From positions 18,998-82,997 of the forward strand of contig JAQVJV010000002.1 in assembly GCA_028695025.1 (NCBI GenBank): DNA of 64,000 bases, written 5' to 3'. How positions within the stretch are numbered: the first letter of the stretch is position 1; every line of letters starts with the position of its first letter. The DNA is from Candidatus Moraniibacteriota bacterium (lineage in GTDB: Bacteria; Patescibacteriota; Minisyncoccia; Moranbacterales; UBA11712). Of the stretch, positions 2,151 to 57,305 are shown piece by piece. The notes under the pieces are model-generated. The model saw nothing but the letters and a program-made list of their open reading frames with translations. It was not told the DNA's origin and did no database searches. Both the position numbers and the translations under genes were made by a program.

Positions 2151-2627
2151 ATGTTGCAGAAATACTATAATCTTCAATTTATGCAGCTGAAACTCTATAT
2201 CGAAGAGAACAATTTCATAAAACTCGCGCTTTTTGAGGGAAAAAAGGTGCTTGATAGCCTAGAATGGCAGGATGAGAACGATTTATCTCACAAACTTTTG
2301 GCGAATTTGGATAAAATTTTGAGGAAAAATAAGTTAGGACTTGACCCCGCCCCAATTTTGCGGGAAATAAATTTATCTTCAAAAGATGCAAAGAATAAAA
2401 AGCGAATACAGCTCGACGCTGGTCAAAAAGGCCGGGCTATTCGCCCGACGCGCCGAGCAGGTTTTCAGGGGCAAAATTGGAGCGGGGTTGACAAACTTGA
2501 TAAGTACAATATAATAAGTCAAGTGCCGCGGAAATGGACGACGTACCGGATCGCGGAAATTGCTTTTGAAACGCTAAAAATCGGAGAAAATTCAAGTCCT
2601 ATTGCCAAGAATAAGCAAGCATGTTAG
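2151..2627 (+). CDS. Hypothetical protein (weak TsaB/YeaZ-like N-terminal pattern)
   Basis: ORF track 2145..2627 with a TTG start; the ATG at 2151 is preferred. The N-terminus LKLYIEENNFIKLALFEGKKVLDSLEWQ...LDKIL loosely resembles TsaB. Not reliable. Confidence 0.3.
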   Translation: MLQKYYNLQFMQLKLYIEENNFIKLALFEGKKVLDSLEWQDENDLSHKLLANLDKILRKNKLGLDPAPILREINLSSKDAKNKKRIQLDAGQKGRAIRPTRRAGFQGQNWSGVDKLDKYNIISQVPRKWTTYRIAEIAFETLKIGENSSPIAKNKQAC

Positions 2628-2767: not shown

Positions 2768-5700
2768 ATGTCTCAAGAGGCCAAAACCCTCGGGGTGAAA
2801 GAGTCTTTCAGCCCGCAATCCTCTCTCCATAAGAGGAAATTTTTCAACCGGCGCGCAATGGTGTCCCTTCCGAACTTGATCGAAACGCAAACCATGTCAT
2901 ATGACTGGTTTCTCGCGGAAGGTATGCGTGAACTCCTCGATGAGGTTAACCCAATTGAGGATTTCACCGGAAAAGATTTGGAACTTTCTTTTGGAAAATA
3001 TTATCTTGACGAGCCGAAATACGACGAGAAAACGTCGAAAGAAAAAAATATCTCTTTTGAGGCGCCGCTCCGGTGCGCGGTGAGCCTTCTCAACAAACAG
3101 ACCGGGGAGGTGAAAGAACAGGAAGTTTATCTTGGAGACTTGCCGATCATGACCGACCGGGGAACTTTCATCATCAACGGCGTGGAAAGAGTGGTGGTGA
3201 GCCAGCTTATCCGAAGCCCGGGAGTCTTTTTCACGATGGAATATCAGAAGGGAAAGAAACTTTTCGGGGCGAAAATCATTCCGAACCGCGGAGCTTGGCT
3301 CGAAATGGAAACGGATCTTGACGGAGCCATTTGGGTGAAAATCGACCGCAAGCGAAAAGTGGCGATCACTTCTCTTTTGCGGGCTTTTGGCATTTCCACG
3401 GACGAGCTTTTGGCCAAAACTTTCGCCGATGTGAACAAAGGCGAGACGAATTATCTTGAAGCGACGATTGGGCGCGACGCGGCGAAGACCCAGGGAGATG
3501 GATTCAAGGAGGTTTACAAAAGAATTCGTCCGGGGGATCTCGCCTCCGTTGAAAACGCGCGGCAGATGATCGAATCGATGTTTTTCAATTTTGAGAGATA
3601 CGATTTCGGAAAAGTGGGGCGATACCGCTTGAACCAGCGTTTGGATGTGGATGAGCCGAATGACGAAGCGCATCGAATTTTGCGTCCGGAAGATTTGGTG
3701 CTGATCATCAAGGAAATTATCAATCTTAATAATAATCCGATGGCGGAGCCGGATGATATCGACCACCTTGGAAACCGGCGGGTGCGTTGTGTTGGGGAGC
3801 TTGTGCAAAACAAATTTCGGGCGGGACTTGCGCGCATGGTGCGAAATATCAAAGACCGGATGAGTACTTGCGATCTTGCCATAGTTGTTCCAGGTCAACT
3901 CGTAAACTCGCGTCCGGTGGCGGCGGCAGTCAAGGAATTTTTTGCTTCTTCCCAGCTTTCGCAATTCATGGATCAGGTGAATCCGCTGGCGGAACTTGAA
4001 CACAAGCGGCGGCTTTCCGCGATGGGGCCGGGCGGTCTCACCCGCGAACGGGCAAGCTTTGAAGTGCGCGATGTCCACCATTCCCACTACGGTCGGATTT
4101 GTCCGGTGCAGACGCCGGAAGGCCCGAACATCGGATTGGTGAATCATTTGTCTTGCTACGCGCGCATCAACGAGTTCGGTTTTCTCGAGACTCCGTATCG
4201 AAAAGTTGAGTTGAAGGACGGCAAGCCGTTTGTCACCAAAGATATTGAATATTTGAACGCGACCGTGGAAGATCGGAAAGTTATTGCTCACGCGGATATC
4301 CTGATTGACGACGATGGATATATCCAGGAAGAAAAAATTGAAGCGCGGGTGAAAGGGAAGCCGTCGGTGATTGAAGCGACGAAGGTTGACTATGTCGATG
4401 TTTCGCCGAAACAGTGTATTTCAATTGCCACTTCGCTCATTCCGTTCCTTGAGCACGACGATGCTCACCGGGCTCTCATGGGTTCAAACATGCAGCGCCA
4501 GGCAGTATCTTGCATTCTGCCGGATTCGCCGCTGGTGGGAACGGGGCTTGAAGACAAAGCGGCGGCTGATTCGGGACAGGTGATCCTTGCGCGCGAAGAC
4601 GGGGAAGTGGCGGAAGTGGATGCGGCACATATCACCCTCAAGACGGAAAAAGACGGAAAATCAACGAAGAAAATTTATTGGCTCCAGAATTTCGAACGCT
4701 CGAACGCTTTCACTTGTATGAATCAGATTCCGCGGGTTTCCCGGGGACAAAAAGTGGCGAAAGGCCAGCTTCTCGCGGACGGAGCTTCGACGGACAATGG
4801 GGAATTGGCGCTCGGCCAGAATGTTTTGGTGGCGCTCATGCCTTGGGAGGGGAACAACTTTGAAGACGCTATCATCATTTCTGAACGGTTGCTTCAGGCG
4901 GATCGCTATACTTCCATTCATATTGAAGATTTTTCAGTGGATATCCGTGATACGAAGCTTGGCCCGGAAGTGGTGACGCGAGATATTCCGAATATCGGTG
5001 AAGAGCGGCTCAAAAATCTTGACGATACGGGGATCATCCATATTGGAGCGGAGGTTTCTTCGGGAGATATTCTTGTCGGGAAAATTTCACCGAAAGGGGA
5101 AGGCGATCTCACCCCGGAAGAAAGATTGCTTCGCGCCATCTTCGGAGAAAAATCAAAGGACGTGAAAGATACTTCGCTTTATCTTCCGCACGGGGAACAT
5201 GGAAAAGTGGTGGATATCAAAATCTTTTCGCGCGAGCAGGGCGACAAGCTTCCGGCAGGAGTGATCCAGCAGATTCAGGTGAGTGTGGCGCAGCTTCGCA
5301 AAATTTCAGTGGGCGACAAGCTTGCCGGACGACACGGAAACAAGGGAGTGATTTCGAAAATTGCGGCGGTCGAAGATATGCCTTGCCTTCCGGATGGCCG
5401 ACCGGTGGATATCATACTCAATCCGCTTGGAGTGGCTTCGCGTATGAACATCGGCCAGATTCTTGAGGCGCATCTCGGTTGGGCGGCTTCCGAACTCGGA
5501 TACAAAATCGCAAGTCCCGCCCTTGACGGAGTGAGCGAACAGAACATAAAAGAGGAACTTAAGAAAGCGGGCCTTCCTGAAGACGGAAAGATGCGGCTTA
5601 TGAACGGAAAGACAGGAGAGTACTTCGACGAAAAAACCATGGTGGGATATATGTATATCATGAAGCTCAACCACTTAGTGGAAGACAAAATTCACATGCG

Positions 5701-35007: not shown

Positions 35008-35191
35008 CCGATTGGGTGTATAATTTGAAAATTGGAGTGTCTTCTTCATCAAATATAGATAAAAAATACTTTATATAAGCCTTTTTATTGAATAAACGAT
35101 TTTGACGGGACATTGATTCTCGTTATTTGGGGATGCAGACCCCGCAATATTTCGCTTCGCTCAATAGGCGGGGCAGGCACGTAGCTGTAAA

Positions 35192-55502: not shown

Positions 55503-55562
55503 ATTTTTTTGGTTAATAATGCTTCTATTTTAGCTTATTTTTTGAAAAATGGTCAAATAAAA

Positions 55563-55592
55563 ACGCCCCATTACATAGGGACGCTTTTATTC
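55563..55592 (-). terminator. Terminator downstream of the minus-strand tRNA cluster
   Basis: Minus-strand hairpin AAGCGTCCC-TATGTAAT-GGGGCGTTT followed by TTATTTG. Confidence 0.5.
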
Positions 55593-55596
55593 GTGG

Positions 55597-55667
55597 GCGA
55601 TCACTGGGAATCGAACCCAGGTTCTTGGGACCACAACCCAATGTCCTGCCATTGAACGATGACCGCC
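55597..55667 (-). tRNA. tRNA-His (anticodon GTG, with G-1)
   Basis: TTGGG-TTGTGGT-CCCAA anticodon arm. CTGGG-TTCGATT-CCCAG T arm. Extra 5' G pairs with C73. Confidence 0.85.
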
Positions 55668-55697
55668 ATGTCTATTTTTTTCTAAATAAATTATATG

Positions 55698-55770
55698 TGC
55701 GTCGTGCAGGGATCGAACCTGCGACCGTTGGCTTAAGAGGCCACTGCTCTACCGGCTGAGCTAACGACGC
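55698..55770 (-). tRNA. tRNA-Lys (anticodon CTT)
   Basis: Reverse complement GCGTCGTTAGCTCAGCCGGTAGAGCAGTGGCCTCTTAAGCCAACGGTCGCAGGTTCGATCCCTGCACGACGCA, very close to the E. coli tRNA-Lys frame. Confidence 0.85.
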
Positions 55771-55815
55771 ATTCACAAGTGTCCTCGGCAGGAATTTCAC
55801 CCCGCACCATTTCAT

Positions 55816-55887
55816 TCTCCTCGGCAGGAATCGAACCTGCATAACCAGCTTAGAAGGCTAGTGTTCTATCCGTTGAACTACGAGGAG
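55816..55887 (-). tRNA. tRNA-Arg (anticodon TCT), flanked by the 13-bp inverted repeat CCCCGCACCATTT/AAATGGTGCGGGG
   Basis: CTCCTCG acceptor. CTAGC-CTTCTAA-GCTGG anticodon arm. GCAGG-TTCGATT-CCTGC T arm. Leader and trailer are complementary. Confidence 0.85.
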
Positions 55888-55909
55888 GATAAATGGTGCG
55901 GGGGGCGGG

Positions 55910-55961
55910 CCTGCATAACCAGCTTAGAAGGCTAGTGTTCTATCCGTTGAACTACGAGGAC
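55910..55961 (-). pseudogene. 52-nt duplicate of the 5' part of tRNA-Arg(TCT), truncated after the 5' T-stem
   Basis: Identical to 55836-55887 except the first nucleotide. Followed by CCCGCCCCCC instead of the T-loop. Confidence 0.6.
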
Positions 55962-55997
55962 ATCACTTGAAGATTATAATGGATTCGGCGGAAAAAG

Positions 55998-57305
55998 TCA
56001 ATTCATCCCGTTGGCTTTTTTGTAGGCTTTCCATTGTTTTACGGACCAGTTGTCCGGTTTTTCAGTGATTTTTTCCTCTCCCGGGTGGGGATAAAGGGAA
56101 GGAGATTTGTAGTTGCTCTTGAAAGTGTCCTTGCGGATCAAATTGCCGTCCGAGTCATAAACTTCTTGATAAGCAACGGTTTTCATTGATCCGTCGCCGT
56201 TTTTCTCCAAAACTTCCGGGCCGATGATTTTGGTTTCGCGGCCGTCGCTTGTCCCATAAAAATCAAAAAATAGCTGGGTGCCTTCAACGCGCGTTTCGAC
56301 GAGAATATAATTGGGCGTGTTGTTTATGAACTTGAGATCCGGCTTGGGGATGTAGACTGTGGCATCAAGCCCTTGCGGGTTGTAGTAGGACACCGGATAG
56401 GCGTGATTGGTGCGGGCGGTTACTTCAAGCCCGGCGTTGAGAGCCGCCCGGAACATAGTGGTGGAAACCTGGCACATACCTCCTCCGTATTCGGGAACGG
56501 TTTTGTCCGTTTTGATGACGAGTTCGGGGAGATATCCGGTGGACGCGTCAACTGGTCCCAAAGCCTCAATGAAAGAAAATTCTTCGTTGGGTTTGATGAG
56601 GACGCCGTCGAATTTCGAAGCACCAGTAGTGACATTGTGGATCCGATTTTTGGGAGAGCCGCGGAAATTGGAAACGCCTTCGCCGACGAGCTCTTTTATG
56701 CCGTACTTGTCAAGATCGGTGCTGGTCACTTCCGGCTTCAAGATGTCGGTTGGAAGTGTGATATCTTTGGCGGACGGATCGTTTGCAAGGGCTTGTTCTA
56801 CATCGGAAAGGCTTTGATCACTGTTGATTTCATAGCCGTCTTTTGAAAGGGAGAAGGCGCTCACATCTCCTCCGGAAAAAGACAATTTTGCGTCTTCTGC
56901 CGGGACGCGCGTGTCATCTTTCACTTTTTCCAGGTAGGTTTTTAATTGGTCGGTGTCGATGGTGAGGCGGTTGGAAAGACGGACATGGGTGCGGCTTTGG
57001 TCCAAATCGATAAAGCGAAAAAATATTTGAAGGGCCGGTTCGGAAGCGGCGGGAGAATAGTTGATATTTGTCGCTTCGGCGCTCCAGCTGGCATCAAAAG
57101 CCAGGGAGGAACGGATTTTCAGCCATCCGGAAAGCGTATTCTTGTCGGCGGTTATGGTTTTGTCCTGGACATGAAAGTTGATTGGCCCGCCGATGATTTT
57201 TTGAATTTCATCTGCGGAAAAATTGCCGAGAATTTTTTCTTCGGCCCGAACTGAAAAAGGCAAAACAAAAAAAACTATTTGGATGATGAGAAAAATCCGT
57301 TTCAT
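55998..57305 (-). CDS. VanW-domain secreted protein
   Basis: Signal peptide MKRIFLIIQIVFFVLPFSVRA. VanW core GGGMCQVSTTMFRAALNAGLEV. Confidence 0.65.
   Translation of the reverse strand: MKRIFLIIQIVFFVLPFSVRAEEKILGNFSADEIQKIIGGPINFHVQDKTITADKNTLSGWLKIRSSLAFDASWSAEATNINYSPAASEPALQIFFRFIDLDQSRTHVRLSNRLTIDTDQLKTYLEKVKDDTRVPAEDAKLSFSGGDVSAFSLSKDGYEINSDQSLSDVEQALANDPSAKDITLPTDILKPEVTSTDLDKYGIKELVGEGVSNFRGSPKNRIHNVTTGASKFDGVLIKPNEEFSFIEALGPVDASTGYLPELVIKTDKTVPEYGGGMCQVSTTMFRAALNAGLEVTARTNHAYPVSYYNPQGLDATVYIPKPDLKFINNTPNYILVETRVEGTQLFFDFYGTSDGRETKIIGPEVLEKNGDGSMKTVAYQEVYDSDGNLIRKDTFKSNYKSPSLYPHPGEEKITEKPDNWSVKQWKAYKKANGMN

Follow-up and report, generated by a model that had tools for sequence, protein, structure and literature searches.

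Single-copy tRNA genes are essential, hence the puzzle of how lineages come to exchange them. The window (the whole stretch of DNA analyzed here, 64 kb in length, to which all coordinates refer) contains a tRNA-Arg(UCU) locus that raises this puzzle in concrete form. An intact gene is bracketed there by an inverted repeat and preceded by a near-perfect copy of its own 5' part. A 51-nt exact repeat together with a 13-bp perfect inverted repeat cannot be the product of chance. We asked how the arrangement arose, which of its parts works, and where each part came from.

One tRNA gene inside another

ARAGORN and Infernal agree on the intact 72-nt tRNA-Arg(tct) gene on the minus strand that the original prediction had described, with an Infernal score of 68.2 bits. 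The 52-nt copy upstream of it, said to be identical except for its first nucleotide, matches nt 2-52 of the tRNA at 51 of 51 positions (55910-55960) and has G at 55961 where nt 1 of the tRNA is C. As had also been noted, the copy ends right after the 5' strand of the T-stem and runs on into a C-rich tract, CCCGCCCCCCGC. The 13-bp inverted repeat exists and is perfect; one arm had been placed correctly at 55891-55903, and the other lies at 55800-55812 rather than 55798-55810. We judge the proposed base-pairing of leader and trailer in the precursor to be right. What had been missed is a 3' fragment (55780-55795), so that the copy does not, as had been claimed, retain the 5' portion only: together, the 5' and 3' fragments make up a single older gene that was broken in two at its T-loop. 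Read along the transcript, the 3' fragment (55795-55780) starts 4 nt beyond the downstream repeat arm, and 14 of its bases equal the 3' end of the intact tRNA, which gives a 14-nt direct repeat between 55782-55795 and 55818-55831. The earlier observation was thus real but incomplete, and its interpretation was partly supported.

The acceptor strands of the two outer fragments, GTCCTCG in the 5' fragment and CGAGGAC in the 3' fragment, are exactly complementary with a G1-C72 pair, and those of the inner gene are CTCCTCG/CGAGGAG with a C1-G72 pair. The sole T-loop bases absent between the outer parts are TTCG (T54-G57), and when the outer 5' part, TTCG, and the outer 3' part were joined, ARAGORN called a normal 72-nt tRNA-Arg(tct). 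Because the outer acceptor strands pair and the TTCG-joined fragments form a valid tRNA, the locus amounts to one complete tRNA gene set into the T-loop of the gene that preceded it. An alternative in which the upstream fragment and the sequence downstream of it form a complete tRNA of their own found no support, since ARAGORN made no call, the Infernal score was 25 bits against a 29-bit threshold, and there is no acceptor 3' strand.

The insert consists of 114 bp that replace TTCG and comprise, in order, CCCGCC, a 13-bp arm, ATC, the complete C1-G72 tRNA-Arg(UCU), ATG, the complementary arm, and TGAA (Table 1). With a slash at each boundary, its junctions read GCAGG/CCCGCC and GGGGTGAA/ATTCC, and the nested unit as a whole spans 182 nt (55961-55780). 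The right boundary of the insert is uncertain by a few nucleotides, because the locus L022 of a relative carries GTGCGGGGTAAAT at the equivalent place. Searched against Rfam, the insert matched no family beyond tRNA; at E<=1, cmscan returned besides tRNA only sub-threshold hits to Plastid-ycf2 and TPP, and no group I model. A group I intron was accordingly rejected, there being no model match and the insert being 114 nt long and situated in the T-loop.

Table 1 Features of the tRNA-Arg locus, its operon, and a second repeat-bounded element in the window.
Feature	Position	Strand	Details
Second inverted-repeat-bounded element, CCCCGCCCCAATTTTG ... CAAAATTGGAGCGGGG	2345..2487	.	111 nt of non-tRNA sequence between arms
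Intrinsic-terminator-like hairpin and T run, end of operon	55554..55593	-	
tRNA-His(GUG), operon gene 3	55595..55666	-	G-1 encoded
tRNA-Lys(CUU), operon gene 2	55697..55770	-	ARAGORN and Infernal
Outer tRNA-Arg, 3' part, ATTCCTGCCGAGGAC-A	55780..55795	-	A58 to C72 plus discriminator A73
Junction TGAA	55796..55799	-	Between downstream repeat arm and outer 3' part
Downstream inverted-repeat arm, AAATGGTGCGGGG	55800..55812	-	3 nt (ATG) past inner tRNA
Inner intact tRNA-Arg(UCU)	55816..55887	-	C1-G72 pair; no encoded CCA; presumed working gene
Upstream inverted-repeat arm, CCCCGCACCATTT	55891..55903	-	3 nt (ATC) ahead of inner tRNA
Junction of outer T-stem and upstream repeat arm	55904..55909	-	CCCGCC; unpaired, one side of 6x7 internal loop in predicted fold
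Outer (ancestral) tRNA-Arg(UCU), 5' part	55910..55961	-	nt 1-52, G1 to last base of T-stem 5' strand
Sigma-70-type promoter of Arg-Lys-His tRNA operon, TTGACT-17 nt-TATAAT	55973..56001	-	11/12 consensus positions

The nested unit is the first gene of an Arg-Lys-His tRNA operon. The -10 box of the operon promoter ends 11 nt ahead of the outer G1, which places the predicted start site about 4-6 nt upstream of G1, and the promoter together with a trailing 'cttcaagtg' is conserved across syntenic relatives. The locus is neighbored by genes for VanW, HSP20, and TsaD on one side and by those for the response regulator and histidine kinase of a two-component system on the other; the neighbors also include PilM/N/O-type pilus-assembly genes. 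Among the neighboring ORFs none encodes an integrase, transposase, recombinase, invertase, or endonuclease. An archaeal origin of the DNA was rejected on the basis of the gene content, the sigma-70 promoter, the intrinsic terminator, and the Moranbacteria homologues, VanW included, all of which identify a bacterium (CPR, Patescibacteria). The VanW protein shows 100% identity to one encoded by a metagenome-assembled genome of Candidatus Moranbacteria. A phage origin was rejected as well: the tRNA pattern had no match in viral contigs, and the matches to the two repeat patterns there were by chance only, in phage DNA that was unrelated or high in GC, and none of them enclosed a tRNA.

The predicted minimum-energy fold of the 182-nt composite is a double cloverleaf (-81.6 kcal/mol, z = -7.0), in which the outer acceptor, D, anticodon, and T stems are followed by a 6x7 internal loop, a helix of 13-16 bp, and then the inner cloverleaf; the same topology was predicted for the single-stranded DNA. 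In the mechanism that we propose, the old promoter would drive a transcript that starts with the dead outer 5' part, and the 13-16-bp leader-trailer helix would let the inner tRNA fold without interference from the near-identical outer sequence. The inner tRNA would then be freed by RNase P and a 3' endonuclease of the RNase Z type and completed by the CCA-adding enzyme, as no CCA is encoded, whereas the outer halves would go to waste. We infer that the inner tRNA is the working decoder of AGA/AGG, which would be transcribed from the old promoter, and that the outer gene became a pseudogene only very recently. For a role of the partial copy as a processing decoy, which had been suggested earlier, no support was found, and the equivalent outer pieces in relatives are decaying.

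Ancestry of the outer and inner genes

We scanned one genome per species with an anticodon-arm pattern and fetched syntenic loci through VanW homologues. Each of the 16 CPR species found in the scan has one uninterrupted tRNA-Arg(UCU) gene, in all cases with a G1-C72 pair, and the exact outer acceptor stem GTCCTCG/CGAGGAC is carried by two of them. The acceptor strand GTCCTCG also occurs in the uninterrupted genes of the loci L023, L026, L027, L029, L008, and L012. At L026, L027, L029, and L023, which represent empty sites, the conserved promoter and 'cttcaagtg' lead into a single uninterrupted GTCCTCG...CGAGGAC-A tRNA-Arg gene, followed by those for tRNA-Lys and tRNA-His. With an uninterrupted G1-C72 gene behind the same promoter in four plain syntenic relatives, synteny shows the outer gene to be ancestral in type, position, and promoter. 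Neither any of the 16 species representatives nor any plain syntenic relative has the nested arrangement. The arrangement is thus not universal among relatives, as it might have been if it served a function; the genes at L023, L026, L027, and L029 are uninterrupted.

The inner gene is identical at 72 of 72 positions to the sole tRNA-Arg(UCU) gene at the syntenic locus L021, and its C1-G72 pair is also found in L032. The L021 and L032 lineages stand farther from the window than the G1-C72 group does, with VanW identities of about 62% and 70-75%, respectively. Being the only tRNA-Arg(UCU) sequence of L021, the inner sequence serves as a working allele in another lineage, from which or from whose like it may have been imported. 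One observation counts against our best explanation of the locus: the T-stem of the outer gene, GCAGG/CCTGC, agrees with that of the inner gene, and the nearest relatives have GGAGG/CCTCC. It would call for gene conversion or lineage-specific variation, and because of it a local duplication with a flip of the 1:72 pair would fit equally well. An argument from co-conversion, with donor-type markers near the break and a recipient-type pair at the distal 1:72 position, was weighed and is not relied on here. No relative of the window organism closer than 72-75% VanW identity was found, and an exact 26-mer matched two metagenome contigs only.

Several relatives carry arrangements that resemble the one in the window. 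In L024 and L025, loci of two JGI samples with 1 mismatch between them over 1371 nt, one tRNA-Arg is nested in another: nt 1-12 of an old tRNA-Arg, a GC hairpin, a different intact tRNA-Arg, and nt 51-73 of the old gene follow one another, and in the old pieces U8 has become C, another 28 nt have been inserted, and the acceptor has a substitution. L028 has 12-nt 5' fragments and GC hairpins ahead of an intact tRNA-Arg and ahead of an intact tRNA-Lys. In L022, an intact, divergent tRNA-Lys lies between the remnants of the resident tRNA-Lys, which contain two acceptor-strand substitutions and an anticodon-loop insertion. In the more distant CPR loci L007 and L013, broken copies of tRNA-Lys and tRNA-His genes with GC-rich D-loop or T-loop insertions stand upstream of intact ones. 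The outer copies in the analogous arrangements of L022 and L024 are, judging from their substitutions and insertions, decaying.

The clusters of relatives hold other sequences of note, among them a 79-aa GIY-YIG ORF in the tRNA cluster of one relative (P0005 contig) and a 243-aa ORF that is common in these clusters and in which an HTH domain and no nuclease fold was found. The junctions in L024 and L028 differ from that in the window (they fall after nt 12) and lack its repeat, so that more than one process may act. From this comparison, the window locus is, in our reading, one instance of a recurrent process of disruption and replacement at CPR tRNA clusters, with builds that differ among relatives.

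Origin of the insert

Among 74 tRNAs in all the sequences collected, the next-best GC-rich complementarity of leader and trailer was 9 bp, at a homologous element, and no other exceeded 6 bp; with the repeat that bounds the insert present at 2 of the 74, the idea that it is a general flanking feature of tRNAs in these bacteria was rejected. The motif CCCCGCNCCA occurs twice per strand in the window, compared with 0.07 per strand expected, and both sites are inverted-repeat pairs. It is the terminal motif common to the upstream arm of the Arg insert, the second element in the window (2345-2487), and the tRNA-Lys cassette of L022. The second element is intergenic, directly before a TTGACA/TATAAT promoter, has a fold z of -4.3, and gave no match against Rfam. 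In L022, the inner tRNA-Lys is bracketed by CCCCGCAC/GTGCGGGG, whose core is identical to that of the repeat around the Arg insert. The L022 repeat takes an extended form, ACCCCGCAC...GTGCGGGGT, whose added AT-rich bases differ from those in the window and are still complementary. The six termini of the three elements agree in (A/C)CCCCGC-N-C(C/G)A followed by AT-rich sequence, and the repeat termini form what looks like a small family. The paired termini of such elements can be written CCCCGCNCCA...TGGNGCGGGG. A repeat of about 90 nt found in the tRNA leaders of relatives has no copy in the window.

Our best explanation, to which we assign a probability of roughly 0.55, is that a repeat-bounded tRNA cassette, or DNA captured during the repair of a break, replaced the resident gene, leaving an inner gene that works and an outer gene that is a fresh pseudogene; in the structural and evolutionary reading of the locus, our confidence is high. 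The resident first gene of the operon, a G1-C72 tRNA-Arg(UCU), would have been interrupted in the DNA that codes for the T-loop, with TTCG exchanged for the 114 bp. The insert would belong to the small family of elements bounded by inverted repeats with (A/C)CCCCGC-N-C(C/G)A and AT-rich termini, and, having brought along an entire tRNA gene into the resident gene of the same identity, would have disrupted and complemented that gene in a single step. Such an element might move by a transposase or recombinase of its own, or might be captured when a double-strand break in the T-loop is repaired. The exact loss of 4 nt would also fit end-joining at a staggered break. We class the locus with DNA, whether mobile or from repair, that targets tRNA genes and makes good the damage it does.

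Whether the insert is a dedicated mobile cassette is a narrower matter, and here our assessment is tentative at best. Repeat-bounded elements were seen three times in two genomes (two in the 64-kb window and one in L022), and one of the three is without a tRNA, which limits the case for mobility. Against the best explanation stands also the lack of a target-site duplication, as no direct repeat was found at the flanks of the insert (GCAGG CCCGCC/ and /TGAA ATTCC), as does the lack of a transposase, recombinase, or endonuclease gene nearby; nor does the explanation give a reason for a cassette to choose its cognate gene. We consider it somewhat unlikely that CPR genomes harbor an undescribed class of miniature inverted-repeat cassettes with CCCCGCNCCA and AT-rich termini, each with a complete tRNA gene and each inserting into a cognate tRNA gene. 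If the cassette reading is true, a cassette that destroys the host copy of a tRNA gene and supplies its own in the same step cannot be lost.

A rival account, possible though on balance doubtful, has no mobile element and sees in the locus the scar of a local repair. A double-strand break in the T-loop, with 4 nt lost, would have been filled with DNA copied from the same gene, a sister copy, or a foreign one; synthesis by fold-back or template switching would have produced the inverted repeat incidentally, and the structure would be functionless and destined to decay. The account is consistent with the absence of exactly TTCG at the junction and with the identity of outer and inner genes at 51 + 14 positions, the two differing only at the terminal 1:72 pair, as expected if homology ends there. 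The inner-type T-stem of the outer gene argues for it as well, as do the GIY-YIG ORF and the many tRNA fragments in the clusters of relatives, and there is a precedent in the phage T4 homing endonuclease SegB, which drives conversion and segmental amplification of tRNA genes (PMC2330249, PMC13096335). A one-off fold-back, however, leaves unexplained why the same terminal motif surrounds the tRNA-Lys of L022 and the non-tRNA segment of the window. Moreover, there is no endonuclease gene near the site in the window, and no nuclease fold was found in the 243-aa ORF of the relatives.

That the outer gene is functional too is, in our estimate, highly improbable. The insert would in that case be an intervening sequence of the T-loop, from which RNase P and RNase Z would excise the inner tRNA. 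The 13-bp helix would hold the outer halves in place for ligation or for service as a split tRNA, so that each transcript would yield two tRNA-Arg. The model draws on the predicted double cloverleaf with its intact outer acceptor, D, anticodon, and T stems, on the undecayed state of the outer pieces, which keep the compensatory G1-C72 pair, and on the 13-bp GC-rich complementarity of leader and trailer, which is like that of archaeal split tRNAs (PMC4390854). The joined exons would nevertheless lack a canonical T-loop, as TTCG is absent and the loop would read UGAAAUU. Nor is there a bulge-helix-bulge motif: the junctions lie in the 6x7 internal loop (CCCGCC / UGAAAUU), where no 4-bp central helix is possible. 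The host is bacterial, and we know of no tRNA splicing endonuclease from bacteria. Furthermore, the four plain syntenic relatives do without the insert, and the equivalent outer pieces are mutated in L022 and L024.

We find it equally hard to credit that the locus is the scar of a tRNA-targeting integrative element, an island that duplicated the tRNA 3' end upon integration at the T-loop and later lost nearly all of its DNA. The original prediction had taken the partial copy as a mark of past recombination, and this holds insofar as DNA was rearranged at a tRNA gene; it does not hold for an integrase att scar, given that there is no integrase or cargo, that 114 bp separate the halves, and that the 5' part is duplicated. 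The 14-nt direct repeat of the tRNA 3' end, from T-loop to acceptor, just downstream of the gene does have the usual att geometry, and a repeat of this classic kind, with 17 nt of 3' sequence, is found near a tRNA-Ser in L008. The 5' 52 nt are duplicated too, however, and TTCG has been lost, unlike in conservative site-specific recombination; the 3' repeat is a mere 20 nt away from the tRNA, and the inverted repeat would have no explanation.

An assembly artefact, in which reads of two strains with G1-C72 and C1-G72 alleles were threaded through a shared 70-nt tRNA core, is similarly improbable. The window does come from a metagenome-assembled genome, and this repeat interrupts a Logan assembly built from the same run. 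In that assembly (SRR22315504), an identical upstream VanW gene and promoter are joined to GTCCTCG, and the contig stops at the first 31-mer common to both copies, short of the insert; this confirms the outer 5' junction and indicates that the 5' part of the tRNA has two read contexts. Strain mixing, in turn, cannot make two novel in-register junctions that flank the T-loop and reconstitute a tRNA, and comparable nesting is present in independent JGI (two near-identical samples), NCBI, and Logan assemblies. Least plausible of all is an invertible switch, in which the 13-bp inverted repeats would be recombinase sites flipping a 78-bp segment and so toggling the only tRNA-Arg(UCU): perfect inverted repeats do tightly flank a functional unit downstream of a fixed promoter, but there is no invertase gene in the neighborhood, 78 bp is very little for a recombinase to invert, the locus would lose its only AGA/AGG decoder in the off state, and the outer tRNA halves would be left unexplained.

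Place among known tRNA-gene rearrangements

Elements that integrate into tRNA genes reportedly carry a replacement 3' end, with an att-site duplication of the 3' part, an account associated with Williams and the year 2002. The window locus shares with them the presence of DNA inside a tRNA gene at the T-loop, which is the classic crossover site, the preservation of a functional tRNA, and an old 3' fragment downstream. It differs in that a whole tRNA was brought in, that both old halves are kept in a nested arrangement with 4 nt lost, and that the 114-bp insert has a terminal inverted repeat and neither integrase nor cargo. Miniature inverted-repeat elements, of which the Rickettsia palindromic elements are an example, are able to insert in RNA genes. 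The insert resembles them in size (about 100-150 bp), in its inverted-repeat ends, in the lack of an ORF, in the occurrence of more than one element per genome, and in that such elements can sit within stable-RNA genes, whereas there is here no target-site duplication, the copies are very few, and two of the three members contain a complete tRNA gene. A complete tRNA as cargo has, to our knowledge, not been described for such elements.

Disrupted tRNA genes are known from archaea, where non-canonical introns and split tRNAs occur in Nanoarchaeum, Caldivirga, and others (PMC4390854). The likeness extends to an interruption outside the anticodon, to GC-rich complementarity of about 13 nt that joins the halves, and to a reduced genome of the symbiont type in the host (PMC4390854). 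The window, by contrast, belongs to a bacterium and shows no bulge-helix-bulge motif; what intervenes here is a complete tRNA with the identity of the gene it interrupts, joining the exons restores no T-loop, and the outer copies of relatives decay. Within the same phylum, group I introns have been reported in the anticodon loop of tRNA genes of Patescibacteria, and such interrupted genes are likewise missed by annotation tools (PMC13011429); those introns are self-splicing ribozymes of at least 200 nt in the anticodon loop, as opposed to a 114-nt insert in the T-loop.

The closest analogy at the level of process is tRNA turnover of the SegB type. SegB is a free-standing homing endonuclease in the tRNA gene cluster of phage T4 (PMC2330249, PMC13096335). 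There too, breaks, gene conversion, and the segmental duplication of entire tRNA genes are concentrated in the tRNA cluster, and the relatives of the window locus hold small mobile-looking ORFs in the cluster, the GIY-YIG ORF among them. The analogy is limited in that the window has no endonuclease gene and that the products of SegB are tandem amplifications rather than T-loop nesting. In the literature, we found no description of tRNA-in-tRNA nesting such as this.

The locus seems to catch the replacement of an essential single-copy tRNA gene in progress: the new tRNA-Arg occupies the T-loop of a predecessor that is still free of decay and whose promoter it has taken over, and the relatives would represent later stages. 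In CPR genomes, nested and fragmentary tRNA genes of this kind cause assemblies to break and tRNA annotation to go astray. The double-cloverleaf transcript predicted here would also be a ready natural substrate on which to test RNase P and RNase Z with a paired leader and trailer. If the insert is mobile, we would be dealing with a selfish element of very small size, one that ensures that it is kept by taking the place of an essential gene. A class of such cassettes, if true, would provide CPR bacteria with a route for the horizontal replacement of essential single-copy tRNA genes.

Inverted repeats and GC-rich hairpins

The window holds a second inverted-repeat element besides the tRNA-Arg cassette, the 114-bp insert that carries the intact tRNA-Arg(UCU); the terminal motif CCCCGCNCCA is common to both (see table for coordinates). 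The 111 nt enclosed by the second repeat pair are not a tRNA but are structured (fold z = -4.3), and this core matched no Rfam family. The element is intergenic and adjoins a TTGACA-17-TATAAT promoter.

Broken tRNA copies at three loci syntenic with the window (L022, L024 and L028) and two in more distant CPR genomes (L007 and L013) contain short GC-rich hairpins with the consensus (T/C)CCNCC-NNN-GGNGG(A/G), inserted at structural positions that recur: following nucleotide 12, within the D-loop or the anticodon loop, and at the T-loop position TTC^GA. In these five loci, hardly any such hairpins were seen outside the tRNA clusters. In the window, tRNA-Leu(CAG) lies ~20 nt downstream of a CCCCGC...GCGGGG hairpin. 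The L020 contig ends in what looks like another pair of broken and good tRNA-His copies, the second being cut by the contig end.

Features in the window and related loci
Feature	Locus	Position	Remark
Inverted-repeat pair CCCCGCCCCAATTTTG / CAAAATTGGAGCGGGG	Window	2345-2487	
CCCCGC...GCGGGG hairpin	Window	35140-35172	6-bp GC stem, 22-nt loop
GC-rich hairpins in broken tRNA copies	L022; L024; L028; L007; L013	3990-4004, 4154-4168; 4021-4035, 5098-5112; 4061-4075, 4202-4216; 361-376; about 1510-1540	
tRNA-His-like sequence, GGCGGCCATCGTTCAATGGTAGGAC...	L020	1-190(-)	Degenerate; ahead of tRNA-His 5' start GGCGGGTATCGTTCAATGG
tRNA-Arg(UCU) with C1-G72	Window; L021; L032	55816-55887; 1741-1813; 1409-1481	
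~243-aa family genes	L020; L024; L025; L031; L032	255-986(-); 4243-4974; 3594-4325; 1501-2229; 1501-2253	
~75-90-nt repeat	L029; L027; L028; L023; L022	3943-4033, 5890-5962(-); 4124-4185; 3979-4048; 1694-1724; about 4200-4295	
16-nt direct repeat of tRNA-Lys 3' end, TCCCTGCACAGCGCAC	L027	4201-4216	Downstream of intact tRNA-Lys
17-nt copy of tRNA-Ser(CGA) 3' end	L008	115-131	~100 nt downstream of gene

tRNA-Arg(UCU) and the adjacent protein family

The first pair of tRNA-Arg(UCU) is an unusual C1-G72 in some Moranbacteria lineages; the nearer relatives have G1-C72, as does every one of the 16 representative CPR species recovered with the anticodon-arm pattern. A gene for a ~243-aa protein, of a family that counts at least 668 homologues in Parcubacteria-type CPR, was found between tRNA-Arg(UCU) and tRNA-Lys(CUU) in all retrieved contexts, and the 5' end of tRNA-Lys often contains its final codons and stop. 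Contigs of ~1 kb carry many of the homologues. The protein has an HTH domain at its N-terminus and, at its C-terminus, an alpha/beta domain for which structural comparison gave no convincing match. In a relative with 72% VanW identity to the window (P0005; JGI 3300075153), the annotation places a 79-aa ORF with a GIY-YIG domain within the tRNA cluster near VanW.

Repeats flanking tRNA genes

In several Moranbacteria, tRNA genes or tRNA fragments lie directly 3' of a ~75-90-nt repeat with the pattern ggaaaggggtcgggaaaacggg...caaggtttcaaggag..gcgacgac, of which L029 has two copies. The window has no copy of this tRNA-leader repeat, and Rfam returned no family match for it. In L027, also syntenic with the window, the ~90-nt repeat element separates the intact tRNA-Lys from the repeat of its 3' end, an att-like geometry. 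In the CPR locus L008, the tRNA-Ser(CGA) repeat is a 3' duplication of the classic att type, whose two copies have hardly any sequence between them.
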